Source: Elusimicrobia bacterium RIFCSPLOWO2_02_FULL_39_32
Lineage (GTDB): Bacteria > Elusimicrobiota > Elusimicrobia > 2-02-FULL-39-32
Reading direction: 5' to 3'
Assembly: GCA_001800135.1 (NCBI GenBank)
Contig: MGUU01000002.1
Location: 2,388 to 66,387 of the forward strand
Length of the DNA stretch: 64,000 nt
Of the stretch, positions 19,346 through 57,795 are shown piece after piece. Each line of letters opens with the position of its first letter. The stretch's first letter is position 1. Under the pieces are notes generated by a model. That model ran no database searches and was not told where the DNA came from. It worked only from the letters and a program-made list of their open reading frames with translations. The translations under genes were made by a program, and so were the position numbers.

Positions 19346-20593
19346 CTATTTTTTTATGTCGCTAAATGTATGTTGTCTGGGAGGAATAGGAGCATCCAAT
19401 ATCCCAAACTGTTGCGCATAGTTTAGCCTCAATGGTTTTAAACTAAAAAATCCAAATTTTCGATTAATTTCATCCATTGTTGAATTTATCTTTTTCCTTT
19501 GCCTCATTGTTTCAAATAAAAATCCTTGAGAAGGCTCCCTAATCAGAGAAGAGACGCTAATGCCCAGAAGTCTTATGGGCTGTAAAAAAGGTTGAATTTT
19601 TTTTAAAATAGCAAAGCTGGTTGCAAAAATTTCATATCCATCATCGGTAGGCTCTTTTCTTTGAACCTGCCTTGTAAAAGTAGTGAAATCCTTATAACGC
19701 AGGGTCAAGACAACAGTTAACCCTTGATAACGCCCTTTCCTTAACCGCACCGCCACCTTCTCGCTTAAAAGCCTTAAAAAAGATTGTAAAATTTCCATGT
19801 CAGATGTGTCTTTTGGAAAAGTTGTAGAGTGTCCTATGGATTTTACAGTTTCCTGTTCTGTGCTTCTCCTTACTCGGCTTTCATCCTTGCCCTGCCCCAT
19901 TCTTTTTAAAATATTTCCCCAGAATCCAAAATAATTCTGTAGTTTTCCTAACTCCATATCCCCTAAATCTTTGCAGCTCCTAATCCCAAGCTGGTTTAAT
20001 TTTTGTTTTATCTTATCTCCAATGCCGCATAATTCATCCACAAGAGTTTCAGATAAAATTTTTTCTATTTCTTCCGGCAAAATAACTGTAAGACCATTTG
20101 GTTTCTTTTTTTCAGAAGCTAATTTTGCCAAAAGCTTATTTGGAGCCACTCCAATAGATGAAGAAAGACCCAAGACAGATTTTATTTTTTCCTGAACCAT
20201 TTTTGCTAGGCCAACCCCATCCTTTGCAAAACATTTTAGGCTGTGCGTTACATCTAAAAAAGCTTCATCGCAGGAGAACATCTCCACCTGGTCCGTAAAA
20301 GATTCTAAAATATTCACTAACTTTCTAGTTGAATCCAAATATTTTTCAGAACTGCCTTCTACCACAATTGCTTGAGGACAAAATTTCTTGGCTTCATACA
20401 AATTCATCCCTGTTTTAACGCCGAACTTCCTGGCAGGGTAAGAAGCAGTCATCACTACAGAACGCCTGCGAGAATCTGCCACCACAAGCACTGGCTTTTC
20501 CCTTAAAAATGGATTTGCCTTTTGCTCAATAGAAGCGAAAAAAGCATCCATATCCACATGTAAAATAACTCGATTTTTCTGATTCTGGTTCAT
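19346..20593 (-). CDS. dinB: DNA polymerase IV (Y-family)
   Basis: ILHVDMDAFFASIEQ. The SxDEAFLD palm motif. Confidence 0.9.
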   Translation of the reverse strand: MNQNQKNRVILHVDMDAFFASIEQKANPFLREKPVLVVADSRRRSVVMTASYPARKFGVKTGMNLYEAKKFCPQAIVVEGSSEKYLDSTRKLVNILESFTDQVEMFSCDEAFLDVTHSLKCFAKDGVGLAKMVQEKIKSVLGLSSSIGVAPNKLLAKLASEKKKPNGLTVILPEEIEKILSETLVDELCGIGDKIKQKLNQLGIRSCKDLGDMELGKLQNYFGFWGNILKRMGQGKDESRVRRSTEQETVKSIGHSTTFPKDTSDMEILQSFLRLLSEKVAVRLRKGRYQGLTVVLTLRYKDFTTFTRQVQRKEPTDDGYEIFATSFAILKKIQPFLQPIRLLGISVSSLIREPSQGFLFETMRQRKKINSTMDEINRKFGFFSLKPLRLNYAQQFGILDAPIPPRQHTFSDIKK

Positions 20594-20597
20594 TGCT

Positions 20598-21203
20598 TTA
20601 ACCTGAATATTTCCTAATCAAACCAACCACTTTACCCACAATCTCTGCTCCTTTTGCCAAAATAGGTTTGTATTTAGGATTTGCAGGAACTAAATAAAAC
20701 TCTTTTCCTTTTTTCTTAAAATATTTTACTGTTGTTTCATCCCCATATCGGGCCACTACAATTTCTCCATTCTCTGCAAATTGCTGAATTTTTACAACTA
20801 CAATATCTTTTTCAAAAATACCTGCCTCCTGCATGCTATCCCCCTTGACCTCCAAAGCAAAAACAGGACCTTTTGCCAAAGAAGAGTCCAGATCAATAAA
20901 GCGATCGTATTCTTCCAAAGCAAGCTGAGGCTCTCCTGCTGGAACCTGACCCAAAACCGGAATTCTAACAGCATTGGCAAACGGGGTTACCTCTTTTCTT
21001 AGTTCTATAGTTCTAAATTGACCTTTAGGACAGTGAAGGTATCCTTTTTTTTCAATCCTTTTAAGATGGTAATCAATGGTATTAGGGGATTTAAAGCCCA
21101 CCTGCTCTGCTAATTCTCTTTGGGAAGGGGTGTAACCATTCTTTCTAATAAAAGAAAGAATGCCATTAAAAATCTTTTTTTCTTGTTCAGTTAAAGGTTC
21201 CAT
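20598..21203 (-). CDS. lexA: LexA repressor
   Basis: Winged HTH (TPSQRELAEQVGFKSPNTIDYHL) plus an S24 peptidase domain (Ala-Gly cleavage site, Ser in GDSM, Lys). A 4-bp gap separates it from dinB. Confidence 0.9.
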   Translation of the reverse strand: MEPLTEQEKKIFNGILSFIRKNGYTPSQRELAEQVGFKSPNTIDYHLKRIEKKGYLHCPKGQFRTIELRKEVTPFANAVRIPVLGQVPAGEPQLALEEYDRFIDLDSSLAKGPVFALEVKGDSMQEAGIFEKDIVVVKIQQFAENGEIVVARYGDETTVKYFKKKGKEFYLVPANPKYKPILAKGAEIVGKVVGLIRKYSG

Positions 21204-21216
21204 TAATTGTAAGTAT

Positions 21217-21234
21217 ATAGGACATTTGTCCTAT
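21217..21234. promoter_or_regulatory. Putative LexA operator: the perfect palindrome ATAGGACA-TT-TGTCCTAT, 14-31 nt upstream of the lexA start
   Basis: An 8+2+8 perfect inverted repeat in the lexA promoter region. It does not match the classical CTGT-N8-ACAG or CGAAC-N4-GTTCG boxes. Confidence 0.5.
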
Positions 21235-21454
21235 TGTCAAATAAGAGCGATTTATTCTTTAATATTCATTGAGATATCTACGAACTTTAACCTCTCAAAT
21301 TTAACATTTGAATATTGTATGATTGTAAATAGTTCATGCTGATAAAGTCATTTCTCTTATGAAAACTTTTTATCAGCACGAACTAAATATAAAATTTTCC
21401 AAAATAATGCAGGTCTTCTTTTTAACCCATAAGGTCTGTAAGGAGGAGGTTTTT

Positions 21455-22450
21455 ATGGCTAAACAAAATAAGGTTCTCTTGTTTTCTCTACTTTATCTTT
21501 TCATTCTTTCTGTTTCTCCACTTTTAGCTGCAATGCCAAGAGCAGTGATTGATCTTATTGTTACGGAGGAAAAATCTGGAAAATATTTTCCAAATGTTAA
21601 AGTTTCCGGAACCTTTGAAGATGAATCTGGCGCCAAGAAAGATCTTGCAGAAAAAAATACGGATATTCGCGGCCAATATGAAGAGTTTGTAACAGTCAAT
21701 GGTAAATTTATTCTTACAGTTTCAGCTCCAGGATATCAAACTGAAATTGTGGAAGGCCAAGTAAAAGGAACTGATGTTAAAGTTTCAAGGCGCATAAGAA
21801 ATAAAATTACTTTAAAAAGAGCTGTTATAAAAAAAGAAGAGCCTAAAGAAACTCCTTTAATTCAAGAACAAAAGCCGCCTGCAATCACTCCTCAAACACA
21901 AACAGAATATAGTCCACAAATAGAAACTATTCCATATTCACCTCCCCCCATGACTTTAGGGGACATGACTGCTGAAACCGGATGGGACAAAAATCGAATT
22001 CATCGTCTTGCCTTAGAATCTCTTTTTGAAGGAGATATTCATTTTGGTTATGTTACACGCAAACTGTGCGAAGCCACTTTAACGCATCAGGAATCATTCT
22101 TAAAAGGTCTTTTAGAAATAGCAAAACAATATGTTTTAAGTAAAAACTTTTCGCAAGACTATCTGGAGATGCGCTCCAATTGGTTCGGCATAAAAGATAA
22201 TGTGGAGGATGCTAAGGTTCCTTTATCCGTAAATGAGCTGATTAAAAAAAGATTGCAGTGGTTCTTAGATGAATCTCTAAGCGTAGATTTTAATGCTGAA
22301 ACAACCAGCAAAGATTGTTGGGTAGTGTTTGTTAAAGAGGATTATGAAAAAAAGTCTAAGATCTGGAAAAAATGTTACCGGGCAGGACCGCGCCTTACAA
22401 AAATCGCAAGAGATTTCGCCACGGACTTGCTTAACACCTTAAAAAAATAA
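21455..22450 (+). CDS. Hypothetical secreted protein
   Basis: Strong RBS AAGGAGGAGG. Signal peptide MAKQNKVLLFSLLYLFILSVSPLLAA. No recognisable domain. Confidence 0.5.
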   Translation: MAKQNKVLLFSLLYLFILSVSPLLAAMPRAVIDLIVTEEKSGKYFPNVKVSGTFEDESGAKKDLAEKNTDIRGQYEEFVTVNGKFILTVSAPGYQTEIVEGQVKGTDVKVSRRIRNKITLKRAVIKKEEPKETPLIQEQKPPAITPQTQTEYSPQIETIPYSPPPMTLGDMTAETGWDKNRIHRLALESLFEGDIHFGYVTRKLCEATLTHQESFLKGLLEIAKQYVLSKNFSQDYLEMRSNWFGIKDNVEDAKVPLSVNELIKKRLQWFLDESLSVDFNAETTSKDCWVVFVKEDYEKKSKIWKKCYRAGPRLTKIARDFATDLLNTLKK

Positions 22451-23228: not shown

Positions 23229-23783
23229 TTGATGAGTGAATCAAAATCAGACTCTGATATTATTCAGGAAATTAGAAATGGAGAGATTCAATCCTTTGCT
23301 GAAATTATTAAAAAATATCAAAATAAGGTTTTAAACCTTTGTCATTCAATTGTAGGCGAGTCCCATGCTGAAGATGCTGCCCAGGAAATCTTCATAAAAG
23401 CTTATCAATCTCTTCCTAATCTTAAAATATCATCCTTTTTTTCTACCTGGCTTTATAGAATCGCTTACAACCACTGCCTCAACATCCTTTCTAAACAAAA
23501 AATAAATAATACTGTATCTTTAGATGCTCTAGATCAGGAAATAGAGGGAATTGATCCTACTTTTCCATCCAAATTAGAAACCGAAGAAGCAAAAGAGCTG
23601 ATCCAAAAAGCTTTAGAACTTCTCCCCCCAGAGGCTCGAATGATTCTTACCCTTAGAGAAATGGAAGGTTTAAGCTATAAAGAACTCGCTCTATTACTTG
23701 AAATTCCTGTAGAGACCATCAAGGTTCGACTTTTTAGAGCAAGAAAATCACTGATCTTAGCCTTTAAAAAAATAGGCCTGTAA
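23229..23783 (+). CDS. ECF-type RNA polymerase sigma-70 factor
   Basis: Sigma-70 region 2 (FSTWLYRIAYNHCLN) and region 4 HTH (LSYKELALLLEIPVETIKVRL). Confidence 0.85.
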   Translation: MMSESKSDSDIIQEIRNGEIQSFAEIIKKYQNKVLNLCHSIVGESHAEDAAQEIFIKAYQSLPNLKISSFFSTWLYRIAYNHCLNILSKQKINNTVSLDALDQEIEGIDPTFPSKLETEEAKELIQKALELLPPEARMILTLREMEGLSYKELALLLEIPVETIKVRLFRARKSLILAFKKIGL

Positions 23784-23823
23784 CATTTCTCTTTTAATCT
23801 TGTCTAAATAAAGGAGATAAAAA

Positions 23824-24369
23824 ATGAAACATGAAGAAATAGAAGAACTCCTATCTGCCTTTTATGATGATGAACTAGAACCCCTGCAAAAAAATCTAAT
23901 AACCCACCATCTTCAATCTTGCCAGAACTGTCATTTAATCCTAGAATCTTGGAAAAAAATTAAACAAAGCGCTTTTTTACAGGTTCCACTTCAAATTAAG
24001 GAAAGTTTTGCAGAAAAAGTAATGGCTAGGATTGAAGAAAAACCTAATTCTGTTTCTTTCACTTTATTTAAACTTTCAGAAACTTTTACTTTTTCTGCCT
24101 TGAAAACCAGTTTTAATACTCATTGGAGGTCGCCAGACTTAAGGATTCAATGGAAAATTGCTTTAGCCTTATCTAGTTTGCTTTTTATCCTGCTTATTCC
24201 TTTGGAAAGAAACTCAGATATGCGGGAAGAACCTGACTCCAGCGAGATACTTCTAGGAAATATTGAAAACAACTCTTTGCAAGCTGAAAATTGGCTATTT
24301 TCTGAAAGCGAAGATCAAAAAGAAGATTTTATGGAAATGGTTTTTGAAAAGTACAATGAAAATATTTAG
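23824..24369 (+). CDS. Anti-sigma factor, zf-HC2 (ZAS) type, with a TM segment
   Basis: HLQSCQNCH (H-x3-C-x2-C) follows the sigma gene. One TM helix (IALALSSLLFILLIPL). Confidence 0.7.
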   Translation: MKHEEIEELLSAFYDDELEPLQKNLITHHLQSCQNCHLILESWKKIKQSAFLQVPLQIKESFAEKVMARIEEKPNSVSFTLFKLSETFTFSALKTSFNTHWRSPDLRIQWKIALALSSLLFILLIPLERNSDMREEPDSSEILLGNIENNSLQAENWLFSESEDQKEDFMEMVFEKYNENI

Positions 24370-24381
24370 GAGGAAATTTTA

Positions 24382-24774
24382 ATGAATCTTAAAAAAATTA
24401 TTGTATCTTTCCTGATAGGCCTTCTGGCAGGAGCAGCTCTCTATAAATGGTCTGCTTATTACTGCGGATTTCATTGTCATGGCAAGTGGGGATGGGGAAT
24501 GCATCGAGAATTTAAGACTGGTAAAATGCTGGAGAAATACACAAAAAAATTGAACTTAACTGATGACCAAAAACAAAAAATTGAAAAAATCTTAAATGAT
24601 AACTTTCAACAATTTAAAGAGTTAAAAAGTAAAGCGCGTCCTCAATTTGAAGAGCTTAAATCCAAAACCCACTTAGAGATTAAAAAAATTCTAAGCCCTG
24701 AACAAACTGTTAAGTTTGAAAAAATGATAGAGGAACGAAAGAAAAAAAGGAAAAAGAGGTTTGAAACCCATTGA
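24382..24774 (+). CDS. Spy/CpxP-family periplasmic stress protein
   Basis: Signal/TM helix. LTDDQKQKIEKIL (LTxxQ) motifs. Confidence 0.6.
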   Translation: MNLKKIIVSFLIGLLAGAALYKWSAYYCGFHCHGKWGWGMHREFKTGKMLEKYTKKLNLTDDQKQKIEKILNDNFQQFKELKSKARPQFEELKSKTHLEIKKILSPEQTVKFEKMIEERKKKRKKRFETH

Positions 24775-26027
24775 TTTTACTTTACTTATTAATAACCGCA
24801 ATGATTCCCGCTATTGCTTTTTCAGATGAAAAAGATTCAGATTCCATGAATCTAACTTGGGAACAGATTGTTCAAACTGCGGAAAAAAACAATCCAGACA
24901 TTCTAGCTGCGCGCTCAAACATTAAATCGTCAGAAGCAAAAATTAAAATTAATCTTAGCGATTTTTTTCCACAGTTATCTGGAAATGCTTCCTATTCTAA
25001 GTCCAAAACTCAAAGCAACATAAGTGAAGAGGATACTTCTCTTGGTTTAACTGCCCAGCAATCCATTTTTTCAGGATTCTCCTCTAAAGGAAATGTGGAT
25101 TCTGCCAAAGCTCTTTTTTTAAAAAGCAAAGCTAGCCTGTTAGAGACAGAATCGCGTGTATTGTACGAACTACGGTCTGCGTATATCAATGTCTTATATT
25201 CCCAAGAAAATAGTAAACTTCTTCAAAAAATTTTGGATCGTAAAGAGGATAACAAAAAATTAATTGAGCTGCGCTATCAGGGCGGGAGAGAAAATCGCGG
25301 ATCTTTCTTACGAGCCCAAGCTCAAGCTAGTCAATCCCAATTTGAACTAAAGCAGGCAGAACGTAATTTGCGTGTGGCTAAAAAAACTTTAAGCCGCGCT
25401 ATGGGAAAAGATTTAAACCCTTCTCAGAAAATTTTAGGATATTTTGAAGTTGAGATCCAAAACAACTCACCCGATTTTGAATTGTTAGCTAAACAAAACC
25501 CAACAGTTCGAAATAGTGAAGCTACTTTAATGAATGCTCAAAGCCTGCTGATTCAAGCCAGGTCCAATTTTTTTCCATCTTTGTCGCTTTCTGCCAGCGG
25601 AAAAAAGCAAGGTAAAAATTTAACACTGAATAATGATAGCTGGTCTATTGGAGGATCAATCTCTTACCCGTTTTTTGCCGGAGGGAGACATTATTATAAT
25701 GTGCTTGAGGCTAAAGCAGAAATAGAGCAAGCTCTAGCCCAACTAGAAAGCCAGGAACAAAAAATTAAAATTGCTTTAGAAGATGCTTATGTAAAATTCG
25801 AGAATGCGCTAGAGCAGGTTAAAATTCAAAAACAATTTTTGGAAGCTGCCCAAGAGCGGGCAAAAATTGCCCGCTCACAATATAATAACGGCATGCTTTC
25901 TTATCAAGACTGGGACTTAATTGAAAATGACCTTACCCTTACGGAAAAACAAACTCTAGAATCCTTACAGAGAGCAGCGCTGGCTGAAGCTGCATGGTTT
26001 GAAACCCAAGGGAAAAGTTTACATTAA
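24771..26027 (+). CDS. TolC-family outer-membrane efflux protein
   Basis: Signal peptide. Two OEP repeats. Confidence 0.8.
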   Translation: MILLYLLITAMIPAIAFSDEKDSDSMNLTWEQIVQTAEKNNPDILAARSNIKSSEAKIKINLSDFFPQLSGNASYSKSKTQSNISEEDTSLGLTAQQSIFSGFSSKGNVDSAKALFLKSKASLLETESRVLYELRSAYINVLYSQENSKLLQKILDRKEDNKKLIELRYQGGRENRGSFLRAQAQASQSQFELKQAERNLRVAKKTLSRAMGKDLNPSQKILGYFEVEIQNNSPDFELLAKQNPTVRNSEATLMNAQSLLIQARSNFFPSLSLSASGKKQGKNLTLNNDSWSIGGSISYPFFAGGRHYYNVLEAKAEIEQALAQLESQEQKIKIALEDAYVKFENALEQVKIQKQFLEAAQERAKIARSQYNNGMLSYQDWDLIENDLTLTEKQTLESLQRAALAEAAWFETQGKSLH

Positions 26028-26037
26028 ACCCAAATAT

Positions 26038-27033
26038 ATGAAAACTAAAAAAATCCTAAAAATAACTCTAATTCTAATTCTGATTGGAATTTGTTTGTTT
26101 TTCTGGAAAAAATTTAAGCGCAAAAATTTAAAAGAGAGATTTAAAACCATAGCTGTAGAAAAAGGAAATATTAAAATTACAGTGCAAGCTACTGGCACCC
26201 TGATGCCGCAAAATCGGCTGGAAATAAAACCACCTATTCCTGGAAGGATAGAGAACATCCGTGTTGAGGAAGGACAAACAGTTAAAAAAGGAGAGATTCT
26301 TGCCTGGATCAGCAGCACAGAAAGGGCCGCTCTCCTGGATGCAGCCCGCTCCAAAGGTGAAAAAGAACTTACCTACTGGAAGGATCTCTATAAGCCAACC
26401 CCATTAATATCTCCCATGGATGGAGTGATTATTGTGCGCAACATGCAGCCAGGCCAAAGCATTACAATTCAAGATGCTCCTCTTGTGTTATCGGACCGTC
26501 TAATTGTTAAAGCTCAGGTAGATGAAACGGATATTGGACAGTTGCTCCTTCAGCAAAAAGTAGAAATTATTTTAGATGCTTACCCAAATGTAAAGATTAA
26601 AGGCACAGTGAATCACATCGCCTATGAATCTAAAACCGTGAACAATGTGACGATGTACGAGGTGGAGGTATTGCCGGAAAAAATTCTAGATTTTATGCGC
26701 TCTGGCATGACTGCAAATCTTAAATTTACTATTCAAGAGAAAGAACATATTCTCATTATTCCACAGGAAGCTGTGAAAACCATGGATAACCAGACAACTG
26801 TGTTTGTTCCTTCTAAAGAAGAAAAAAATAAAAAAAACAGAATTCCAAAAACCATTGAAACTGGAATAACAGATGGAAAAAAAATTGAAATCCTTCAAGG
26901 TCTTTCTGAAGGCGAACCTGTCTTAGTTCCTGAAATAAGATTCCAAAACTTAAAATTAAAAAACAACGGGGTTAACCCATTTATGCCTGCAAGAAGAGGT
27001 TCAGGAAATAGAACAAGCGAAACAAAAAAATAA
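26038..27033 (+). CDS. macA: Efflux periplasmic adaptor subunit (MacA/HlyD family)
   Basis: N-terminal TM helix, then biotinyl/lipoyl-like and beta-barrel MFP domains. Start chosen at ATG 26038 (MKTKKILK). Confidence 0.8.
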   Translation: MKTKKILKITLILILIGICLFFWKKFKRKNLKERFKTIAVEKGNIKITVQATGTLMPQNRLEIKPPIPGRIENIRVEEGQTVKKGEILAWISSTERAALLDAARSKGEKELTYWKDLYKPTPLISPMDGVIIVRNMQPGQSITIQDAPLVLSDRLIVKAQVDETDIGQLLLQQKVEIILDAYPNVKIKGTVNHIAYESKTVNNVTMYEVEVLPEKILDFMRSGMTANLKFTIQEKEHILIIPQEAVKTMDNQTTVFVPSKEEKNKKNRIPKTIETGITDGKKIEILQGLSEGEPVLVPEIRFQNLKLKNNGVNPFMPARRGSGNRTSETKK

Positions 27034-27050
27034 TTTTTTAAAATTTCATT

Positions 27051-29039
27051 ATGCTAATCGAAATAAAAGGAATTAAAAAAACATACCAGATGGGTGAGAC
27101 CATGGTGCCAGCTCTTCGCAACATTAACTGTTCCATTGATTCAGGAGAATTTGTAGCGATTATGGGCCCTTCCGGATCAGGAAAATCCACGCTCATGCAC
27201 ATCCTGGGACTTCTGGACACCCCAGACTCTGGTTCCTACAGGTTAGCTGAACAGGAAATTTCAGGTTTAACTGAAGATGAACTCTCCCGATTGCGCGGAA
27301 AAATAATCGGATTTGTCTTTCAACAATTCAATCTCATTCCAAGAACATCCGCTTTAGAAAATGTTGCTCTGCCCTTGCTTTACACACAATCTAAAGATCA
27401 TAAAACATTTCCAAAACATCTATTAGAACAGGTAGGACTTGAAGGAAGAATAAACCACAAGCCCAATGAACTCTCCGGAGGGCAGCAACAAAGAGTTGCC
27501 ATTGCCAGAGCTCTTGTGAACCAGCCAAGAATCATTTTTGCAGATGAACCAACCGGCAATCTTGATTCAAAATCTCAAAATGAGATCATGCATATTTTTA
27601 AAAAACTAAATGAACAAGGACTGACTATTATTTTAGTGACTCATGAAGAAGAAGTAGCGGCTAATGCTAACAGGATCATTAAAATGCGAGATGGAATGAT
27701 CCTCTCAGATGAAATCCGCTCAGAACTAGAAAAATTTAACACTGTCCGAACAATAACAAAACCCGCTATAAAAACCCTTGAGGCGCTCTTTCCACAAACA
27801 AAAAATAGTCCTTCCTATTCTCTTTTTGAAGCCTCTGAACATTTTAAACAGGCATGGCGCTCATTATCCATCAATAAAGTGCGCACAGGACTTTCCATGC
27901 TTGGAATCCTGATTGGGGTGGGAGCAGTGATCAGCATGCTCGCGTTAGGTCAAGGCGCAAAAGAAACCCTTGAAAAGCAGTTATCTTCCCTGGGGTCTAA
28001 CCTTTTAGTTTTGCGGCCTGGTTCCATGAGAGCAAGAGGAGTTGCTTTACAAACCGGAGAAGTCACAAAATTTACTATCCAAGATGCTGAAGAAATTAAA
28101 AAAAATATTCCCATGGTAAAAGATGTCTCACCTTCAGTGACTGGGCGTGGCCAAATCGTAGTTGGAAATAAAAATTGGAACAGCCAAATTTTAGGCGCAT
28201 CTCCTCAATACGCTTCCATGCGAGCATCCTCCCCTTATCTTGGCAGATTTTTTACTCATGATGAAGACCGCCAAAGGGCTCGCGTTGCAGTTTTAGGACA
28301 AACCATTGTTAGGGAACTTTTTTTAAACTCTAACCCTATTGGAGAAATGATTAAAATTAATAAAATTAATTTTCAGGTGATCGGTATCTTGCCGGAAAAA
28401 GGAGCCACTTCTTGGCGTGATCAAGATGACATTGTAGTGATCCCACTCAATACTGCAATGCGCCGGGTTTTAGGAAAAGATTTTGTGGATTCCATAGACA
28501 TAGAGATCATGGATGCAAACAGCATGGAAGATTCCCAAGAACAAATTAAAAACCTAATCATTCAGAACCATCGGATCCCTGCTTCCCAACAAGAATCTTT
28601 TGAAATACGAAATTTAGCGGAAATCCAGGCTGCGCTTTCTGAAACCAGCAGAACCATGTCCTTGCTTTTAGGATCAATCGCTTTGATTTCTCTAATTGTA
28701 GGCGGGATTGGTATTATGAACATTATGCTGGTTTCTGTCACTGAGAGGACCCGAGAGATTGGCCTGCGTAAAGCTGTGGGAGCAAAACAGTTTGATATCC
28801 TTAGCCAATTTTTGATTGAAGCAGTGGTGGTCAGTTGTTTAGGAGGATTGGCAGGGATAGTATTAGGCGCTTCTATTTCCTTTACTATTACCCAGCTAGC
28901 AGGTTGGACCACAAATATATCCTTAGAATCAATACTAATCGCTCTGCTTTTTTCTTTAGGAGTCGGAATAGGATTTGGTCTTTGGCCAGCTAAAAAAGCA
29001 GCTTCTCTTAATCCTATTGACGCTTTGCGTTACGAATAA
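27051..29039 (+). CDS. macB: MacB-type ABC transporter, fused ATPase-permease
   Basis: Walker [25 protein letters not shown], a periplasmic MacB_PCD domain and a C-terminal FtsX domain. Confidence 0.9.
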
Positions 29040-43191: not shown

Positions 43192-43611
43192 ATGAATGAA
43201 CTAACCATTGGACAAATTGCAAAAAAGGCTGACGTAAACGTTCAAACGATCTATTTCTATGAACGTAAGAACTTAGTAACGCCCGTGAAACGAAGGGATA
43301 CGGCTATTTCTCATTCTGGTTATAGGATTTATAGTGAAGCAGAGGTTCAAAAAATCCGGTTTATTAAAAACGCGCAAGAGCTTGGATTTAGCCTAAAAGA
43401 AATTTCCGAATTACTTCACTTGCGTATTTCTACAAAAGCTCAGTGTGGTCTGGTTCAGTTAAAAGCTGAAAAAAAACTTAAAAGCATTGAGGAAAAATTG
43501 AAATCTTTAAGTCAGTTAAAAAAAGTTCTAGGAAATTTACTGAATGTTTGCAGGAATCGTAAAACTACAGATGCTTGTCCTATTTTAAAAAGTTTACAAA
43601 AAAGGAGGTGA
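43192..43611 (+). CDS. merR: MerR-family transcriptional regulator with Hg(II)-type metal-binding cysteines
   Basis: N-terminal HTH. Cys85, Cys120 and Cys129 give spacings of 35 and 9, identical to the spacing of the three metal-binding cysteines in canonical MerR. Confidence 0.85.
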   Translation: MNELTIGQIAKKADVNVQTIYFYERKNLVTPVKRRDTAISHSGYRIYSEAEVQKIRFIKNAQELGFSLKEISELLHLRISTKAQCGLVQLKAEKKLKSIEEKLKSLSQLKKVLGNLLNVCRNRKTTDACPILKSLQKRR

Positions 43612-43617
43612 AATAAA

Positions 43618-43740
43618 ATGAAACAGATCATGATAGTTCTGGGATTGCTAACCTTAGTAAGCGGAGGGATTTGGGCATATTCCACTTTAGGTAATGTTTG
43701 CTGCGGCAACCCTTCAGCGCTGTGCTGCCCTTTAAAATAA
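43618..43740 (+). CDS. Unannotated 40-aa single-TM peptide with a CC-x6-CC tail (MKQIMIVLGLLTLVSGGIWAYSTLGNVCCGNPSALCCPLK)
   Basis: AGGAGG RBS 9 nt upstream. Located between merR and merTP. Below the 60-aa cutoff of the ORF track. Confidence 0.55.
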   Translation: MKQIMIVLGLLTLVSGGIWAYSTLGNVCCGNPSALCCPLK

Positions 43741-43754
43741 GGAAGTTTTCTAAA

Positions 43755-44336
43755 ATGAAAAAAATATTTCTTGCAGCGGGAGCAGTTGTATCCTCAGCTC
43801 TGGCGTCGGTCTGTTGTCTAGGACCTATCGTTCTTTTAGGCTTAGGAGTGGGGGGTGTTGGTTTTGCGGCTGTGTTAGCAAAATATCGTCCTCTCTTTTT
43901 AGGTTTGACTTCAATTCTTTTAGGGATTGCATTCTATCTAACCTATAGAAAAAGAGAAGTTGCTTGCGAAGATGGCAGCTGTGAACTTCAATCAGGAAGT
44001 AAACCTATGAAGAGGGCTTTATGGATTGTTACAGTTGCAGCGCTTGGATTCGCTACGTTCCCCAACTGGTCCACTTTTGCTTTGAAAAGAGCTCCTCCGG
44101 TTGAGCAATCAAATATGGAAACTATTCGATTATCCATTGCCGGCATGAGCTGTACCGCCTGCGCTGTGAGCATACAGAAGTCCCTCAAGAAAGTGCCGGG
44201 CGTGGAGATTGCATCCGTAGATTTCGAAAAGTCCGAAGCTGTGGTTCAAATTCACCCGGGAAAAATCGAAAATGATGCGTTGATTCGAGCTGTTCAAACA
44301 GCCGGCAGCTATACAGCAAAAATAAAAGAGAATTAA
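43755..44336 (+). CDS. merT: MerT-MerP fusion: mercuric-ion transport membrane protein fused to an HMA metallochaperone domain
   Basis: ALASVCCLGPIVLLGLG and KYRPLFLG match MerT TM1/TM2. A second Cys pair (CEDGSC) is present. The C-terminal HMA domain carries GMSCTAC. Confidence 0.85.
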   Translation: MKKIFLAAGAVVSSALASVCCLGPIVLLGLGVGGVGFAAVLAKYRPLFLGLTSILLGIAFYLTYRKREVACEDGSCELQSGSKPMKRALWIVTVAALGFATFPNWSTFALKRAPPVEQSNMETIRLSIAGMSCTACAVSIQKSLKKVPGVEIASVDFEKSEAVVQIHPGKIENDALIRAVQTAGSYTAKIKEN

Positions 44337-44823: not shown

Positions 44824-47199
44824 GTGCAATTTTTAATAATTAAAAATCGTTTTATTTTCATAGGAGCTGTTTTTTTTGTAGGATTGTTCTGGAACTTATC
44901 TTCCAACAATCATGGAAATGGTAAAGACAATCCTGTGAAAACCAATACAGCAAACCTCCTCATTCACGAAAAAAGTCCATACCTTTTACAGCATGCCTAT
45001 AACCCAGTGAATTGGTATCCTTGGGGAGAGGACGCGTTTAAAAAAGCAAGAAAAGAAAACAAACCTATTTTTCTCTCTATTGGCTATGCAACTTGCCACT
45101 GGTGTCATGTGATGGAAAAAGAATCTTTTTCAAATCCAGAGATCGCAGCTGTGATGAACGAACACTTTGTATCCATCAAGGTGGATCGTGAAGAAAGACC
45201 GGATGTGGACAAGATTTACATGACCGCAGCTCATGCCGCAGGATGGGGAGGCGGCTGGCCTTTATCCATGTGGCTTACTCCAGAATTAAAACCATTCTTT
45301 GGTGGCACCTACTTCCCTCCCAATGAGCGCTGGGGCAATCCAGGATTTAAACAAATCTTGCTCCGACTCTCTGAACTATGGAAGACAAAACAAAAAGATA
45401 TAGCCTTAAATGCTGATCGCATGGAACAAGAATTAAAACAATATTCTCAGGTAGAGGGTAGATTTGGCGCGCTTGATACAGAATCTTTGGATAAAGGATT
45501 TGCTGCCTTTAAAGGAGACTTTGTGCCCTCTAAAGGTGGGTTTGGTGGAGCGCCGAAGTTTCCCATGCCAGTTAACCAAAACTTTCTATTGCGTACCTAT
45601 GCAAGAAGCAAGGAGAAAAAAGCGTTAGAAATGATCACGCATACGCTGCATGAAATTTCAAAAGGAGGGATCTACGACCAGATCGGTGGAGGTTTTCATC
45701 GCTATTCCACTGATGAAAACTGGCATATTCCCCACTTTGAAAAGATGCTTTATGACAATGCGCAACTGACAATGAACTATCTTGAAGCCTATCAAATCAC
45801 CAAAGAAAAAGAATTTGCCAGAATTGCCCGGGAAACTTTAGATTATATCTTGCGTGACATGACTCATAGAGAGGGAGGGTTTTATTCCGCAGAAGATGCG
45901 GATAGCCTGCCGACCGAGTTTCAGCGACAGGAGGCGTCGCAGACGCACTCAGCGAAGCAGTCCCCTTTGGGGGCTCGTCCTTTAGGAGGAAGTGCCGTCT
46001 CCAAAGATGTTATAGGCAAGCGGCCGACCGAGTTGAAAGGTAAAATTGAAGATACTAGCCATGAACATGGTTCCGAAGGCGCTTTCTATATCTGGGAAAA
46101 AAGAGAGATTATGGAAATTTTAGGAAAGGAATCTGGTGAAATCTTCAGCTACCGATATGGCGTAGAAGAGAATGGTAACGCCAAGTCCGATCCACAGGGT
46201 GAATTCATAAATAAAAACATTCTTTACCTTGCTCATTCTATTGGAGAAACAGCTAAAAAATTTGGAAAAAAAGAAGAGGAAATCCAAAAAGTTTTAGATG
46301 AATCTAGAGATAAACTTTTGTCCGTGCGTTCTAAACGTCCTAGACCACAACTGGATGATAAAATTCTAGTGGATTGGAACGGACTAATGATTTCAGCTTT
46401 TGCTAAAGCAGCTCAAGTGTTGGCTGACCCAGAATATCTAAAAGCTGCAGAGAAAGCCGCGCTTTTTCTAAAAAACCATCTCTATGATGATAAAGACAAT
46501 CGTCTTTATCATCGCTGGAGGGAAGGAGATAGAAATATTCCTGCTTTATCCTTAGATTATGCGCTTTTAACCCAAGGAGTTATTGATCTCTACGAAACAT
46601 CCCTAAATGTAGAATGGCTCATATGGGCAATTGAACTAACAGAAACAGAAATCAAACTTTTTTATGACAAAGAAAAAGGTGGATTCTTTATGACCAGTCC
46701 TGATCATGATAAGAACCTCCTTGTGCGAGCCATGGATGATACAGACAATGTTATTCCTTCAGAAAGTTCTGTGACTGCTCTTAATCTTTTGCGCTTGTCG
46801 CAATTTACTAGTCAAGAGGAGTATCGAAAAGCAGCAGAAAAAACCCTTATGCGATTTGGAGCCCAGATGAAACAACAACCCAGATCTCTCCCACAAATGT
46901 TAGTGGCCCTAGATTATGCGCTATCTAAACCAAAAGAAATTATTATAGCAGGCGATCCAAAATCAGCTGATACAATTAAAATGGTGCAGGAGGTTCATCG
47001 TCGATTTATTCCCAACAAGATCCTCATGGTTATAGATGAAGGAAAAAATCGTGAATCCCTAACTCATTTTTTACCATTTCTGGAAGGGATTAGACGTATT
47101 AAGGGGAAGTCCACAGCCTATGTCTGCATCAATTACGCCTGTGAGCTGCCAACCAATGATCTTCAAATATTGCAAAAAATATTGGATGAAAATCGCTAA
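44824..47199 (+). CDS. Thioredoxin-domain (DUF255) protein with a C-terminal six-hairpin glycosidase-like domain (YyaL/SSP411-like)
   Basis: [20 protein letters not shown] motif. Contains a low-complexity insertion. Confidence 0.8.
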
Positions 47200-47846: not shown

Positions 47847-50800
47847 TTAGGCTTGCTGCTTATAGAGCTGGGATATTTTTTGTTCTTCATCCTTAGAAGG
47901 CGGTTCCAGTGGAACTCCTTGGATGGTCAGACGATCTCCTATAATTTCCACTCCTCGTTCCCCCTTTAAGCCCTCTGCCCAGTCTCTTAACCCTGAATTC
48001 CTTGCCCCCATCTCTATTAAGCTTAAGCTCACTTCTTCACTAATATCTAGAACTTGCGGAATCAAAATCTTGATATTCCATTCTTGAGCCTCTTTTCCTA
48101 AAAGGTTTGTCCATACCATTGAACTCTTCTCTGTGGTAACAATCCTTAAGGAGAAAGATTCGATCATGGCTATTCTCTTTAACTCAATCACCGCTTCTTC
48201 CGCGCTTTCTAAAATAGCTATTCTCCCCCTTATGCCCAATGCTTTTTCTATCTCTCCAATGGCTGCGCCATTCTTATTCACAAAAAGATACTGAACTTTC
48301 TTAAATGGATGCTTCTTTTTCTCTTCTTCAATCTGCTGAATGGTTCTTAATTGCAGTAAACGATCGTTCTCAGTCTTTGCGCTCTTAAAATCTATCAGAC
48401 AAATCTCTATCTGATTCACCTCTGCGCTCCAAAATTGAAAAACTTTATCTAGCGCAGAGGAATAAGAGAATTCGGTTTGCAATAGAAGTTCCTTAATCTT
48501 ATCTGTTGAATCCCCCAAAGCTTGGGCTACTTGTACAATTCCTTGAAGGTTAGGATTGATTCCCCTTTCAATTCCAGCAAAAGTTTTTGAAACATTCGTA
48601 AGGTAATGAACGATTACGGAAGCAGCTAAGAGTAGAGGAAATGAAATCCAGAAGGGAACAGGAATAATTAGTTGGATAATACCTAAAAGCAAGTTGATGC
48701 GAGCGATCTTTTTTGCAGATTCAAGAAATTGTGGTGGAGCACGGGAATCAAAACGATTAGCGATCCATTCTTTGTGACCTTCCACAAATACGCGCACACT
48801 AGAAAAGAAAGAGACTTGCAGCGCTACTTGAAAATTGCTCCCTGTCAAAATATAAGTTAAAAGCCCGATAGACAACGCACTCAAGCCAAAAGAGATCACA
48901 TCCTCTAACAACGCCCACTTCCGATTGTACTCCTCTAGGGTAAGATCAGGGAAGAAATGTTTTCTAAGCAACTTATATAACCATAACCAGTTGCCGCCAC
49001 CAGAAAAGTCATCAGCGTGATTAGAAGGAAATTCTCCTAATATTTGTTGTATTCTGACCGACTCTACAAGGAATGCGGCATGTGGATAGCTATTTTTAAT
49101 TTCGTCGCATATTTTTGAATAAAGATCATTTTGAGGGGTGTAAATATCAACAGAACTTACTCGCTGAGTCATCACTACATTATTGATCACATCAGCAAAA
49201 AATCTGGCTAGAATTCTCATCTCCCAAGATAAAAGGCGGGATGGAACATTAAATGAAAAAGTGTGAGTATTATCATTAGCGTGAATCAATATTGTTATTT
49301 TTTCATTTTGATCTGGAATCGCTGACTCTGTCAACCTTCTTCCCACATCCACTATGTTTCCAGACTTTTCTACAACGCTAATTGGAAGCGGGCTTCGCCT
49401 GCCATATTTTATCGCCTCATCAATCTCATGAATTTTGGTTTCTAAATCATTGAGACCATCTGGTCCCAATGTTCTAAACGACCACACGCCCAAATTTTCT
49501 GCTGGCTCAACATCTTTTAAATAATCATTCCCAACATAAACAATTTGACTGGGACTCACTCCAAGCGCTGCCAAGACCCTTTCATAAAAAATTGGTTCTG
49601 GTTTAGAGGCTTTTACCCGATCTCTGGTAATAAGAAGCGACGGATCAAAACATTCCTCAATGCCAATGATTTGCAATATTCTTTTAACCACCTCTTTGCC
49701 ACTATTAGTTGCTATCGCTAAAGTATAACCCTGTTGTTTAAGATGGTCTAAGAACTCTTTTAGCTTTGGATTAGGCTTTATCAAATCGAACGGCATATGC
49801 TTCAGTTCTCCTATTTCTTTTCCTCCCCAACTGATGCTGAATTCAAGGGATAATTGGTTGCTGCTTACCGCGCCTTTGTTTGAAAGCTCATCACTTTTAT
49901 TTTGGATTACCTCTCTGGCTGTTTCGATTGAGACATTATTTCTTTCAGCATAGGTTCGTACAAGCGCTTCCCTATACATAGCCTCGAACTCTGGAGCATG
50001 GTAAAGAGTTCCATCCAAATCAAATAAAATCAATTTAATTTTTTCATTGCTGCTGGAATGTGTGTCGGTTCTATCCTGAACTTGACCTTGCGCTTTAGTT
50101 TTTGACTCTTTTAGGAGGGCACGAACAGGAGGATGATTGGAGATACCATCAGCAAGGCTTGCTAGGATTGTGCCGCCGGCAGTGGTACGCTGAATAGCAG
50201 GGTTTAACTCGCGGCCACCCCAATCCTTTTCACGAACCTCATTCACAGCCTTGAGCATATCACCACCAACCAGAAAGACTGGAACTCCGGCTCCCCTTGC
50301 TTTCTCTAGTTTTTCTAAAAGTTGCCGTGTGGCTGTACGCCCGTCATTCCGTTCAAAAACTCCAGTACCGCCATTGGCGATAATCCAGCCATCGCCATTA
50401 TTTTTATGGCGCTCTATGATCTTATCAATCTCTACAAGTATTACATCCAGTGTCTTAGAACCAATGTCTATCGCTTTTTGCTCAATACCAATCCGATCGA
50501 CAAGTTCTGCTGTGTCCTCGTCCCGCACAATGACTCTATGATCTATAGGTAACAATAACTTCATATCGTTCTCTTGCGCTCTCTCTCTAATTTTGGAAAT
50601 AGCTTTTTCAACCTTGAGCGCCGCTTCCCCCTTTGGCAGCCTTGACTTACCTATGGACTGATCTGCCTGTTTAAGGAAAGGATATGCTAAGGCTCCTACA
50701 ACGACCATGATATCCCCAGCATGTTGTTGCCCACTCGACACATATTTGAGCAAATGTTTGTATATCTTATCTGGTTTAGTTCCTCCCCAAATAATAAGTC

Positions 50801-53800
50801 CTGCACCACGAGCTTCCGCTTCAAACTCAAGCTTTTTGTTGACTTCTTTAACAAATGAAATTCCAGCTGCCCGTGCCTCTACAGGAAAATGGTTTACCAT
50901 TCGCACTGTTGCATCCGTGTTGTGACTTTCTATCGCCTCATTAATATAAGCTGCAGGATGACCTAATGCGTTAAGAAGTCGTTCAATAAATTTGTCCTGA
51001 TCTTCAGGAATCGGCTGTGAACCAGAATAATAACTGCTCTCCTCTGGATAGAAACGGCTGTTGGGTAACATAAAGACAATCTTTTTATTTTGATATACCT
51101 TACGCGCAGATTCAATGGCAGCGGGAATTGCGTCAATATCTTCTGGAAGCATAACGATTCCAGCGTCAATGCCTATTTCCATCATACGCTTTTCGGCTAT
51201 TGGAAGCACTCTTCTTTCAACATCAAACTTCTCTCGCGTAACGGAATCATCAAGCTCTTCTTTACTGGGTCGTCCAAGATGGGTACAGATAAAAAGTTCG
51301 TCAAATTTTTCTAAGGCACTTTTAACGGTTTCCACAGTCTGCACGATCTTTGTATCCCCATCTCCCGGATCCTCTCCAATATCCCAGTTAATCTTGAGAA
51401 ATGCAGATATCCCATCAGGTAAATCCTCTATGGTTCGTATTGCCCCGGACTGATCAGATGATGTAAGAAAAATCTTTTCTGATTCTGGAGCTGGAGACGG
51501 TTCGTATGCGTCACCTCCGCCACTGCTTGTGCCAGATATTTGATGAGGACCATGATCCTTTGGTAAATTCTTGTCTAACCCCCGACTCTTTATTTCATTC
51601 TGATAATTCATCCGCCCTAAAGTGAGCGCCATGGAAATCTTAAGATTGACATCTTTTGTTTCATTCAGCCATTCAATAAGCATATCCTTATTGAATAAAT
51701 AATTCCCGCGTTCCGTTTGTATAACTTCAAATTCATCCCACGCGGGCACAATATTTCGTACTTCTAAAACTTGATCTTCACGATCCTTGAATAATTTTTC
51801 AGATTCATGGATGATGGACTCTTCAATGGATTCACCCTTAGTCTTAGCCAAAAATTCTGGACCCCACTTAGGTTTTACAAGTTCCTTAGCGGAAATTTTT
51901 CCGGTTTCCGCTAGATTTAAATTGTTATCTGCGGCATTAGCAGTGCTATTTTCTTGAAACCGCCTCATGAGATACTTGAGCGCCTTCTCGATTCCTCCCT
52001 TGATGACAAAAGGCACATAAGAATAGACGCGGGGAAGAGCCTTATCTTCTCCCCAAAAAAATCTAAAAATTTCCTGAAGAGCTCGTTTCAAATTTTCCGT
52101 CATTCCAAACAAGGATTGAAATTCCAAATGTTGTGGATCCACATCCAATTTCTTTGCCCACAATAGAGCGCTTACAATAGTTCTCGCATCATGACTGGCG
52201 ATCCCGATTCTTTGGATGAGTTTATGTTTTCTAAATAATAGTCGCACTATTTCCAAATAGTTTTCGTCGGTTTTCCAATTTCCCATCCAAACAGGAATTG
52301 GATCACCACGCTCTTCTGCATCGCGAACCTCCTGCGAATGATAAGCTCCCTTAACAGGACGGATGGCGATAGGCATTGGATCCTCAGGATCCTTTTCCAT
52401 CCAGTTTATGAGCCCCTCAACTTCAGCCAATGAATCTACAAAATAGGCTTGTACCACCATCCCGACGTCCGGAATACGCCTGCCGTTTTCTCGCACCATC
52501 TTCAAATTTGGATCTAACTGATTTTCAAGCTCTTCCAGAACAGTCTGGATTACTTCATTAGCAACATCACGATAAATGTACTCTTCTTTATCAACCCAGA
52601 CAATTGCTCCCATCTGTCCTGCTCTTTTAACTTCACGCACTTTTGCCACTATCTTTTTGTAATTCTGAACAGCCAAATTGAATCCTTCTCTTCTCACAGA
52701 TTCAACTTCACTATCCAGCCAACTTTGCGGTGTAAGATTAGTTACCTTTGAGGAAATATTAGGTTCTAGACCATAGGACGCCATTTTTTCAATAAGATCC
52801 ACACAAGCTTGAGCATTTTCCATAGCTTCTTGTTCCGTATGAATTCCTTCACCCAAAATGTCTGCTATAGATAAAACAGGTCTGGACTCGGACTTCCCAT
52901 CTCTTACAACCCGTATCCCTTTAGCCGCCATTTCTCGTATAACTTTTTCTACCGCCTTTTCTTGTGAGAGATTTTTCATGGATTTAAGTGCTTCATCCTC
53001 AGTGTCTCCCACAATATACTGCGCTGTCATAAAAAACAATAACTTGCGCAGCCATTCCTTAAAAATTTCCGGTGTCCTATCAGACTGGATGATTTTATCA
53101 GCCAAATCTACACTCCCAGTTAAGAGTTTTGCAAACCAAGGGGTGGGGTACATTTTTAAAATGAACTTTGTGATTCCGTTTCTTAAGAGCTCTAGTACAT
53201 TTAAGTTCCGTTCTCTTTCTTGTCGGATTAATTTGGATGCTTCCACGAGTCTTTCTGTCTCACGAACGATTTCAGACTCCGGTATTCCCCATCCGCTATT
53301 ATCCTCTTCTATCTCGTCTCCATTTTGGAAATGCGTTTGGGGTTTACTAGGTTGAAAACGGGGACGTTTCACATTTCCCTCTAAATTAGAAACGTCCTTG
53401 TTTTTCCTTAATATGTCACTCAAGTCTGTTGGGCCCAGAGCAAAAAATAGATTGGCGAGGATCGCCGCAACTGCTGTAGGTATGGTTAGCCAGTGAAATC
53501 CAGCCACTGCAAAGATGGCCACAGCCGCAACTAAATTTGCATAAATGCCTGAACTTCCATGAGCTCCCGGAACTGTTAAGCGAAAACCCAAAACCTTTTG
53601 CAAACCCGGCGGCCAATCATCAAAAGCAATCACGCCTTTTGTGTCAAACTTGGGCCAACTCCATTCTTTAAATGGTTTTTTCCAGTTGACCTCAATCATG
53701 TGGCCAACCTCATTGATAACAATGGCAAGAAAAACAGCGGAAATTGCGCTGCCCCAAAGAGAATTAGCGTCAACTACAATGCCGAAAAATCCTGCTAAAA

Positions 53801-55974: not shown

Positions 55975-57795
55975 ATGAAAAATCAAATTCTTGAAACATT
56001 GACAAAATACTGGGGATATACCAGCTTCCGCTTGTTTCAGGAAGAGGCCATTCTCTCTATCCTTGAGGATCGGGACACTCTTACCGTACTGCCCACGGGC
56101 GGAGGAAAGTCTGTCTGTTTCCAACTGCCAGCGCTTATTTCCGATGGGACGGCTGTTATTATTTCCCCTCTAATATCGCTAATGAAAGACCAAGTGGATT
56201 ATCTAAAAGATTTAGGGATTGACGCTGAATGCCTAAACTCCAGCCTCTCCTCTTCAGATCAATTCACAGTGATTGAAAAAATCAGGGCAGGAGGATTAAA
56301 ACTTCTTTATCTGTCGCCGGAACGACTGATGTTTGAGCAGACCACAGAACTTCTTAAAAGTGTTAAACTTTCATTCTTTGTGATTGATGAAGCGCACTGC
56401 ATTAGCCATTGGGGACACAATTTCCGCGAAGAATATCGGCAATTAGGATTCATCAAAAAAGAATTTAAAAATATTGGAGTCCATGCTTTTACCGCCACTG
56501 CCACGCTTGAGGTGCAACAGGATATTGTAAAGCAGTTGAATCTGGACGCGCCCCATCTGTATATCGGAAATATTGATCGTCCCAATCTAAACTATCGCAT
56601 TTTGCCGCGTTCAAGCCATCTCCTCGGACAGATTGTAGAGGTCATAAAAAAACATCCGAATGATCCGGGGATAATCTATTGTCTTAGGCGCGCGGATGTT
56701 GACGAACTCTCAAAAAAACTTAACGACATCGGCTACCAAAACCTGCCTTACCATGCCGGACTTTCAGATGAGGAACGCAAAAAAAATCAGGACGAATTTT
56801 CTTCAGAAAGAATTAACATTATCGTGGCAACCATTGCTTTTGGGATGGGAGTTGACTGCTCAAATATTCGCTACGTCATACATTCTGCCATGCCTAAATC
56901 AATAGAACACTATCAGCAAGAAACAGGCCGCGCCGGTCGAGATGGTCTAAGCGCGGACTGCACTCTCTTTTATTCCGGCGGTGATTACCGAACATGGGAA
57001 ACTATGCTGCGCGACTCATCCGACAAGGAAATGCTTCTTTCAAAACTAAAGGCGATGTACAACTTTTGCGTAAGGCCTGAATGCAGACACCGAACCCTTG
57101 TCAACTACTTTTCGCATACATATGAAAATAATAATTGCGGGGCCTGCGATGTTTGTCTGGGCGAGGTGGAGATGGTGCAAGAGCCGCTCGTCATTGGACA
57201 AAAAATCATTTCTTGTGTAGCGCGAGTACAGCAAAGGTTCGGCGCGGACCATATATCAGATATCCTGAAAGGGAACCGCACCGCATCCATCGAGAGATGG
57301 GGACACGAAAAACTTTCAACATTCTCCCTGATGAACTCTGAAACAAAAGTTTTCATTCGGTTCATGATCGAACAGCTTCTTGGTCAGGGTTTTCTGCGTC
57401 GGGAAGGTGAATACTTAACAATTGCCATCACCGGGTTAGGACAAAACCTTCTTAAAGGTGAAGCGGTTCCCGTGCTGGCAAAACCAATTGTGGCAGTAAA
57501 AAAGAAAGAAATAGAAATAAAGCGCAGATCAAAGCGCACCCAGGAATGGGAAGGATTGGATGAAAAACTTTTTAACGCATTGCGCGCCAAACGCGCGGAA
57601 CTCGCGCAGAGCAAAAGCGTTCCCGCCTATATCATATTTAGCGATAAAACCCTCAAAGATATGACCCTGACCAGTCCAAAAACCATTGAGCAATTCGCCA
57701 ACGTATTCGGCGTAGGCGCTACCAAACAAAAACAATATGGCCAAATATTTATTGACGTCATCAAAAAATATGAAGGGACTAATGGTCAGGGTTAA
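55975..57795 (+). CDS. recQ: ATP-dependent DNA helicase RecQ
   Basis: DEAH motif, RecQ zinc-binding cysteines, RQC and HRDC domains. Confidence 0.9.
   Translation: MKNQILETLTKYWGYTSFRLFQEEAILSILEDRDTLTVLPTGGGKSVCFQLPALISDGTAVIISPLISLMKDQVDYLKDLGIDAECLNSSLSSSDQFTVIEKIRAGGLKLLYLSPERLMFEQTTELLKSVKLSFFVIDEAHCISHWGHNFREEYRQLGFIKKEFKNIGVHAFTATATLEVQQDIVKQLNLDAPHLYIGNIDRPNLNYRILPRSSHLLGQIVEVIKKHPNDPGIIYCLRRADVDELSKKLNDIGYQNLPYHAGLSDEERKKNQDEFSSERINIIVATIAFGMGVDCSNIRYVIHSAMPKSIEHYQQETGRAGRDGLSADCTLFYSGGDYRTWETMLRDSSDKEMLLSKLKAMYNFCVRPECRHRTLVNYFSHTYENNNCGACDVCLGEVEMVQEPLVIGQKIISCVARVQQRFGADHISDILKGNRTASIERWGHEKLSTFSLMNSETKVFIRFMIEQLLGQGFLRREGEYLTIAITGLGQNLLKGEAVPVLAKPIVAVKKKEIEIKRRSKRTQEWEGLDEKLFNALRAKRAELAQSKSVPAYIIFSDKTLKDMTLTSPKTIEQFANVFGVGATKQKQYGQIFIDVIKKYEGTNGQG

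Follow-up and report, generated by a model that had tools for sequence, protein, structure and literature searches.

The window, by which we mean the whole 64-kb stretch of DNA that was analysed, carries a lexA gene followed on the same strand by the gene of a translesion-type polymerase, and a palindrome lies in the promoter in front of lexA. The features are listed below in the order in which lexA is read, with window coordinates.

21235-21240, minus strand: -35 hexamer TTGACA of the lexA promoter, found by promoter scan; TTGACA or a close variant occurs in all relatives
21218-21233, no strand assigned: 16-bp dyad TAGGAC-N4-GTCCTA, the proposed LexA operator, seen upstream of lexA in relatives too
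21212-21217, minus strand: -10 hexamer TATACT, abutting the 16-bp core; found by promoter scan and conserved in the stacked promoters
20598-21203, minus strand: lexA, 201 aa, with Pfam domains LexA_DNA_bind and Peptidase_S24
19346-20593, minus strand: gene of a dinB-like Y-family DNA polymerase, 415 aa, with Pfam domains IMS, IMS_C and IMS_HHH_1

The LexA protein is 100% identical to the 'repressor LexA' of Elusimicrobia bacterium RIFCSPLOWO2_02_FULL_39_32 and combines an N-terminal winged helix-turn-helix (PF01726, E = 8.3e-19, residues 1-65) with a C-terminal S24 peptidase (PF00717, E = 5.5e-33). Over residues 1-72 it aligns with E. coli LexA without any gap, so that residue numbers are shared between the two proteins there, and the alignment places the recognition helix at K38-S-P-N-T-I-D-Y-H-L47. 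The alignment also points to a putative cleavage site at Ala89-Gly90 and a catalytic dyad Ser123/Lys160; these four residues are invariant across the clade in a 20-sequence alignment and align with A84-G85, S119 and K156, the cleavage and catalytic residues named for E. coli LexA (PMC3091678).

The polymerase gene starts 4 nt past the lexA stop codon on the same strand, and the two genes are probably co-transcribed. A same-strand Y-family polymerase gene also lies downstream of lexA in loci L001, L082, L083, L085 and L210, sometimes with an 82-aa ORF, yaeQ, an RF-1-domain gene or a DUF72 gene in between; the minimal controlled unit would therefore be a lexA-translesion-polymerase cassette. The 82-aa ORF belongs to an uncharacterised family with 24 invariant columns, members of which separate lexA from the polymerase gene in L082, L083 and L085 and immediately follow lexA in L087 and L210, and its only Pfam matches are weak ones to DUF6504 (E = 0.008 and 0.13). 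In the sister strain L001 it sits between lexA and dinB (L001 3667-3915); comparison of window 20593-20598 with L001 3607-3926 shows that ~325 nt with the ORF have been cleanly lost in the window strain, which is why lexA and dinB are just 4 nt apart. This ORF may encode an accessory protein for the SOS cassette.

The palindrome itself, ATAGGACATTTGTCCTAT at 21217-21234, is a perfect 8+2+8 inverted repeat, as an earlier sequence-only reading of this DNA had reported. Its 18 bp consist of the 16-bp core plus one flanking base pair per side, and within the core the half-sites GGAC-ATTT-GTCC are two inverted tetranucleotides with a spacer of exactly 4 nt. Read in the sense of lexA, the order is TTGACA-A-TAGGACAAATGTCCTA-TATACT-TACAATTA-ATG, the first T of TATACT doubling as the last base of the 18-bp palindrome. 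The distance of 14 nt to the lexA start codon given by that reading is essentially right: 13 nt separate the 18-nt palindrome from the ATG, and 14 nt the 16-nt core. The promoter, TTGACA/17/TATACT with 11/12 matches, was the top promoter-like site of the scan between 19000 and 22000. Its 17-nt spacer is filled by the 16-bp dyad, which touches both hexamers; a repressor that blocks RNA polymerase typically sits in the spacer between -35 and -10. From the -10 hexamer to the lexA ATG there are just 8 nt (TACAATTA), with no Shine-Dalgarno sequence, and the lexA mRNA is thus probably leaderless or nearly so; the same distance is likewise 6-8 nt in L001, L083, L087 and L210. The exact 18-mer is single-copy in the window, and GGAC-N4-GTCC occurs once in the 64 kb. 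Further upstream, in the intergenic stretch that separates the lexA promoter from the divergent gene, lies an imperfect inverted repeat (21323-21392) with 24-nt arms that are 83% complementary and a 22-nt loop; it has no Rfam match and is kept in L001 (2822-2891) with a different loop.

Conservation of the dyad upstream of lexA

The relatives considered here are the lexA loci of the closest homologues: L001, an Elusimicrobia metagenome-assembled genome, stands at 95% LexA identity to the window protein, and L081, L082, L083/L084, L088, L089 and L211 at 51-59% (tblastn). Together with the window these are the GGAC-box loci: TAGGAC-N4-GTCCTA occupies the same promoter position in 8/8 loci whose LexA has the helix KSPNT[IV][DH]Y, perfectly in seven and with one mismatch in L211, and in the relatives too it overlaps a TTGACA/TATAAT-like promoter. 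Stacking 12 clade lexA promoters on the box leaves just three conserved blocks, namely the box and the two promoter hexamers (-35 and -10). Outside these blocks the sequences are unrelated; the loci span low to high GC content and have different neighbours, among them cstA, a DCC1-like gene and brnT. There is one site per clade locus, and lexA is the sole gene that always adjoins it.

The motif is also specific to this clade among the loci searched. GGAC-N4-GTCC was found upstream of lexA in 0/79 lexA loci from other phyla and in 0/80 loci retrieved with a LexA alignment from a viral/prophage collection; LexA identity there peaked at 41%, so that these loci include no clade members. Anywhere in 746 kb of control lexA loci, GGAC-N4-GTCC occurs 6 times; many of these loci have GTGAAC-N4-GTTCAC, and one (L005) has TGCAC-N4-GTGCA. 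The KSPNT helix occurs in 13 of the best 120 LexA clusters, and the clade that bears it is small; P0002-P0004 and P0006-P0008 are predicted to carry GGAC boxes as well.

Covariation of the box with the LexA recognition helix

In the protein alignment, the LexA proteins of GGAC-box loci have the helix K38-S-P-N-T-[IV]-[DH]-Y-[HY]-L47 in common, and close relatives with other helices have other boxes. L087 (protein P0012, helix KSLNTIHFHL) has TAGAAC-AATT-GTTCTA in the identical promoter slot. P0011 shares this KSLNTIHFHL helix, and a GAAC box was forecast for it before its DNA was read; the promoter, TTGACA-A-TAGAACATTTGTTCTA-TATACT, bears the forecast out with a TAGAAC-N4-GTTCTA box. L213 (P0015, KSTNTVDYYL) has TAGAAC-AGTT-GTTCTA, and its helix differs from the GGAC type at residue 40 only. 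L085 (P0017, KSTWTIRYHL) has TAGCAC-AAAT-GTGCTA, again in the same promoter slot, and L212 (P0019, with Pro40 but Ser41) a degenerate GAAC-type box, TAGAAC-ATTT-GTTTGA. As a separate observation, the L213 LexA is short at 173 aa, with ~33 residues of the wing/linker missing, and its promoter still has a perfect GAAC box; this LexA may be defective or an assembly artefact.

The changes in the half-sites are symmetric (GGAC/GTCC, GAAC/GTTC, GCAC/GTGC) and leave the dyad intact, and what is fixed in the stacked boxes is TAG..CTA and G.AC..GT.C. Of all the arguments for LexA itself as the protein that reads the site, this covariation of the box with its helix is the strongest. Taken with the position in the spacer and the clade-wide conservation, it upholds the earlier proposal of a candidate LexA box for the lexA-dinB operon, and we consider that the TAGGAC-N4-GTCCTA dyad is very probably (roughly 85%) the autoregulatory LexA operator of lexA-dinB.

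Which residues could set the specificity is suggested by the same series. Across the 11 proteins of the correlation, Pro40 goes with GGAC in 8/8 and Leu40 or Thr40 with GAAC in 3/3. Residue 40 cannot be the sole determinant, because P0019 has Pro40 and yet a degenerate GAAC-type box. Asp44/Tyr45 were also considered as specificity determinants and are ruled out by P0009 (His44, GGAC box) together with P0015 (Asp44-Tyr45, GAAC box); residue 40 fits better. E. coli LexA contacts DNA through Ser39, Asn41, Ala42, Glu44 and Glu45 of helix III (PMC3091678), and the variable residues of the clade lie in helix III, at or beside these contact residues, with residue 40 between two of them. In a neighbour-joining tree of low resolution, the GAAC-box proteins are interspersed among the GGAC-box ones, a placement that suggests repeated box switches. 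We therefore entertain, tentatively and at well below even odds, a more specific scenario in which the LexAs of this clade of uncultured bacteria switched back and forth among GAAC, GGAC and GCAC, with one residue that caps the recognition helix at its N-terminus (Pro40 versus Leu/Thr40) largely responsible for the GAAC/GGAC switch. If true, all four bases would be used in nature at this operator position, the cyanobacterial GTAC box included, and the clade would illustrate a minimal, repeatedly used route for the co-evolution of a global repressor with its operator, as well as a source of orthogonal LexA/operator pairs.

Other sites and other readings of the palindrome

Beyond lexA, where further copies would point to the SOS operator of the whole lineage that the sequence-only reading had put forward as a possibility, the box was sought in the window, in the flanks of the relatives and in metagenomes. 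Allowing up to three mismatches, TAGGAC-N4-GTCCTA has 12 matches in the 64-kb window against 12.9 expected, and fewer than two mismatches are reached at the lexA site only. The Pfam-based gene inventory of the window contains no recA, uvrA, ruvAB or imuB; a RecQ helicase gene (55975-57795; DEAD, Helicase_C, RQC, HRDC) is the only other DNA-repair-type gene in the window, and its upstream region lacks a GGAC box. The relatives' flanks (~50 kb) yielded no second site either, and in a metagenome scan for TAGGACANNTGTCCTA there was no lexA, dinB or other SOS gene among the at least 80 loci listed.

The metagenome scan nevertheless bears on the main alternative, that the palindrome is the operator of another regulator, for example a TetR-family or Crp-like protein encoded elsewhere, which would control lexA-dinB instead of or besides LexA. 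On unrelated metagenome contigs among the matches listed, TAGGACA-N2-TGTCCTA immediately precedes TetR-family genes in L140, L147, L153 and L158 and Crp-like genes in L145 and L148 (the former with an LmrA/YxaF-like C-terminal domain, the latter cNMP-binding), so that the 16-mer by itself is not diagnostic of LexA; moreover, most of the at least 80 listed matches are intergenic, which suggests that other proteins use this sequence. Other regulators thus probably use the same palindrome independently. At the lexA loci themselves this explanation seems improbable: there is no TetR or Crp gene in any clade lexA locus, nor among the window ORFs scanned against Pfam, and an unrelated regulator would not explain why the second half-site base changes with the helix of LexA itself. 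A few metagenome copies look different again: L125, a 2.7-kb contig, has three copies of the 16-mer (722, 2061, 2617), each in a longer repeated unit, and L101 has overlapping tandem copies at a contig end (3736, 3750); these may be repeat elements unrelated to lexA.

Could the palindrome have arisen by chance, or be a structural feature of the spacer to which no protein binds? Perfect 8+8 palindromes with a loop of 0-4 nt are not rare in this AT-rich window, where 20 were observed against ~9.5 expected and a maximum of 21 in first-order Markov simulations, and the palindrome by itself is therefore weak evidence. Two things do exceed chance expectation: the palindrome lies exactly within the spacer, and it recurs in front of lexA in independent genomes. 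Its 12-base core occupies this promoter position in 8 independent loci whose surroundings are unrelated; the sequence of a promoter spacer ordinarily varies. The base changes that do occur are symmetric and preserve the dyad. A chance origin is accordingly very improbable, more so than a foreign regulator. Least likely of all is an RNA or DNA hairpin (terminator, attenuator or mRNA 5' stem-loop), for although an 8-bp stem is possible and several of the listed metagenome matches lie within longer terminator-like hairpins followed by T runs, the site at lexA precedes the -10 hexamer, so that transcripts from the lexA promoter probably do not include it, the loop would be of 2 nt only with no T run after the palindrome, Rfam gives no match for it, and it is the sequence (TAG..CTA, G.AC..GT.C) and not mere pairing that is conserved.

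Relation to known LexA boxes and proposed mechanism

The sequence-only reading held that the palindrome resembles no known SOS box, which goes too far: its dyad and 4-nt spacer are those of GAAC-N4-GTTC and of AGTACWNWTGTACT, with one base per half-site different. GAAC-N4-GTTC, the 'Cheo box', is the LexA box of Firmicutes and Actinobacteria, and variants of it are known from Cyanobacteria and Chloroflexi (PMC4951493). Published consensus sequences are CGAACN4GTTCG for B. subtilis and AGTACWNWTGTACT for cyanobacteria, the latter regarded in the literature as a variation of the Gram-positive box (PMC3091678). The window site shares with GAAC-N4-GTTC the inverted 4-nt half-sites, the 4-nt spacer and three of the four half-site bases (G-AC...GT-C), and we therefore regard it as a variant of this family; a position in SOS promoters, that of lexA itself included, is a further likeness. 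That it was called non-canonical is likewise an overstatement. In close relatives with 52-55% LexA identity, TAGAAC-N4-GTTCTA takes this very place in the promoter. The difference lies in the second half-site base, which in the window is G (C on the other arm) and not A (T); with GGAC/GTCC as the half-site in the window and seven relatives, the box falls outside strict GAAC-N4-GTTC membership. GAAC-N4-GTTC was found nowhere in the window, nor near lexA even with one mismatch, and none of 10 published LexA box patterns (including CTGT-N8-ACAG and the alphaproteobacterial GTTC-N7-GTTC) matched within 21150-21460 with up to one mismatch. In contrast to the B. subtilis box, the conserved flanks are TA...TA and not C...G, and the window helix KSPNTIDYHL differs from that of the Bacillaceae LexA P0094 (ASSSTVHGHL). 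A search of the searchable literature, which does not cover all journals, returned no LexA box for Elusimicrobia and none of the GGAC type.

The cyanobacterial box shares the architecture and differs at the second half-site base only (GTAC as against GGAC in the window), while the helix in cyanobacterial loci, KSPAPIQSRL, is unlike that of the window. GCAC-type boxes (TAGCAC-N4-GTGCTA in L085, TGCAC-N4-GTGCA in L005) keep the spacing and the dyad and have C instead of G as the variable base; the L085 LexA is 48% identical to the window protein, with its KSTWTIRYHL helix unlike that of the window. These GCAC-type boxes are similar to the box of Fibrobacter succinogenes, which Mazon et al. reportedly described in 2004 as TGCNCN4GTGCA. 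The Verrucomicrobia box TGTTC-N4-GAACA (PMC4951493) likewise exemplifies how the LexA motif drifts while its architecture stays, its half-sites being opposite in orientation and of other sequence. With the E. coli SOS box CTGT-N8-ACAG the window site shares the protein family, the identical numbering over residues 1-72 and an operator that overlaps the promoter, but the E. coli spacer is of 8 nt and the half-sites are unrelated. A change of specificity through this helix is not without precedent: the engineered altered-specificity LexA408 recognises a symmetrically altered operator (PMC7102963). In LexA408, changes at the N-terminus of helix III retarget LexA, and in the present clade it is residue 40 that tracks GGAC versus GAAC. 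The LexA408 substitutions are said to be P40A/N41S/A42S. What the locus offers is not a new kind of regulatory system; it is a natural specificity switch within the known LexA box family.

From the anatomy, conservation and covariation observed here, we infer binding, repression and RecA-dependent induction as established for LexA generally (PMC3091678, PMC4951493). A LexA dimer would bind the dyad, one winged-helix-turn-helix domain per TAGGAC half-site; since the site fills the TTGACA-TATACT spacer, bound LexA would block RNA polymerase there and repress the lexA-dinB transcript. Upon DNA damage, RecA filaments would trigger self-cleavage of LexA at Ala89-Gly90 through Ser123/Lys160, which would free the promoter; the translesion polymerase would be induced and the LexA pool restored. 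The box itself probably derives from the widespread GAAC-N4-GTTC by an A-to-G change at the second half-site position, along with a change in the recognition helix, where residue 40 is the candidate for the residue that causes the specificity.

The drift of a global regulator's binding motif from phylum to phylum is classically illustrated by LexA. Among the locus and its relatives there is a natural series of boxes in close steps (GAAC, GGAC, GCAC); the promoter context is otherwise identical and the helices differ very little, meaning that the residue-to-base recognition code of LexA becomes directly testable. For annotation, SOS genes in these genomes are best sought with TAGGAC-N4-GTCCTA and not with Firmicutes or E. 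coli matrices.

Some features of the wider window can be mentioned. At ~2 kb from the lexA promoter, a co-directional cluster (23229-29039) comprises genes for an ECF sigma factor, a putative anti-sigma factor, an outer-membrane efflux protein, an HlyD-like adaptor and a MacB-type ABC transporter. A MerR-family regulator gene followed by a MerT-HMA fusion gene (43192-44336) looks like a small mercury/heavy-metal module, and a DUF255 thioredoxin-like gene lies further downstream of the fusion gene (44824-47199). Finally, proline dehydrogenase, phosphoglycerate kinase and HAD hydrolase domains are joined in a single 2449-aa ORF on the minus strand (47847-55196), an unusual fusion.
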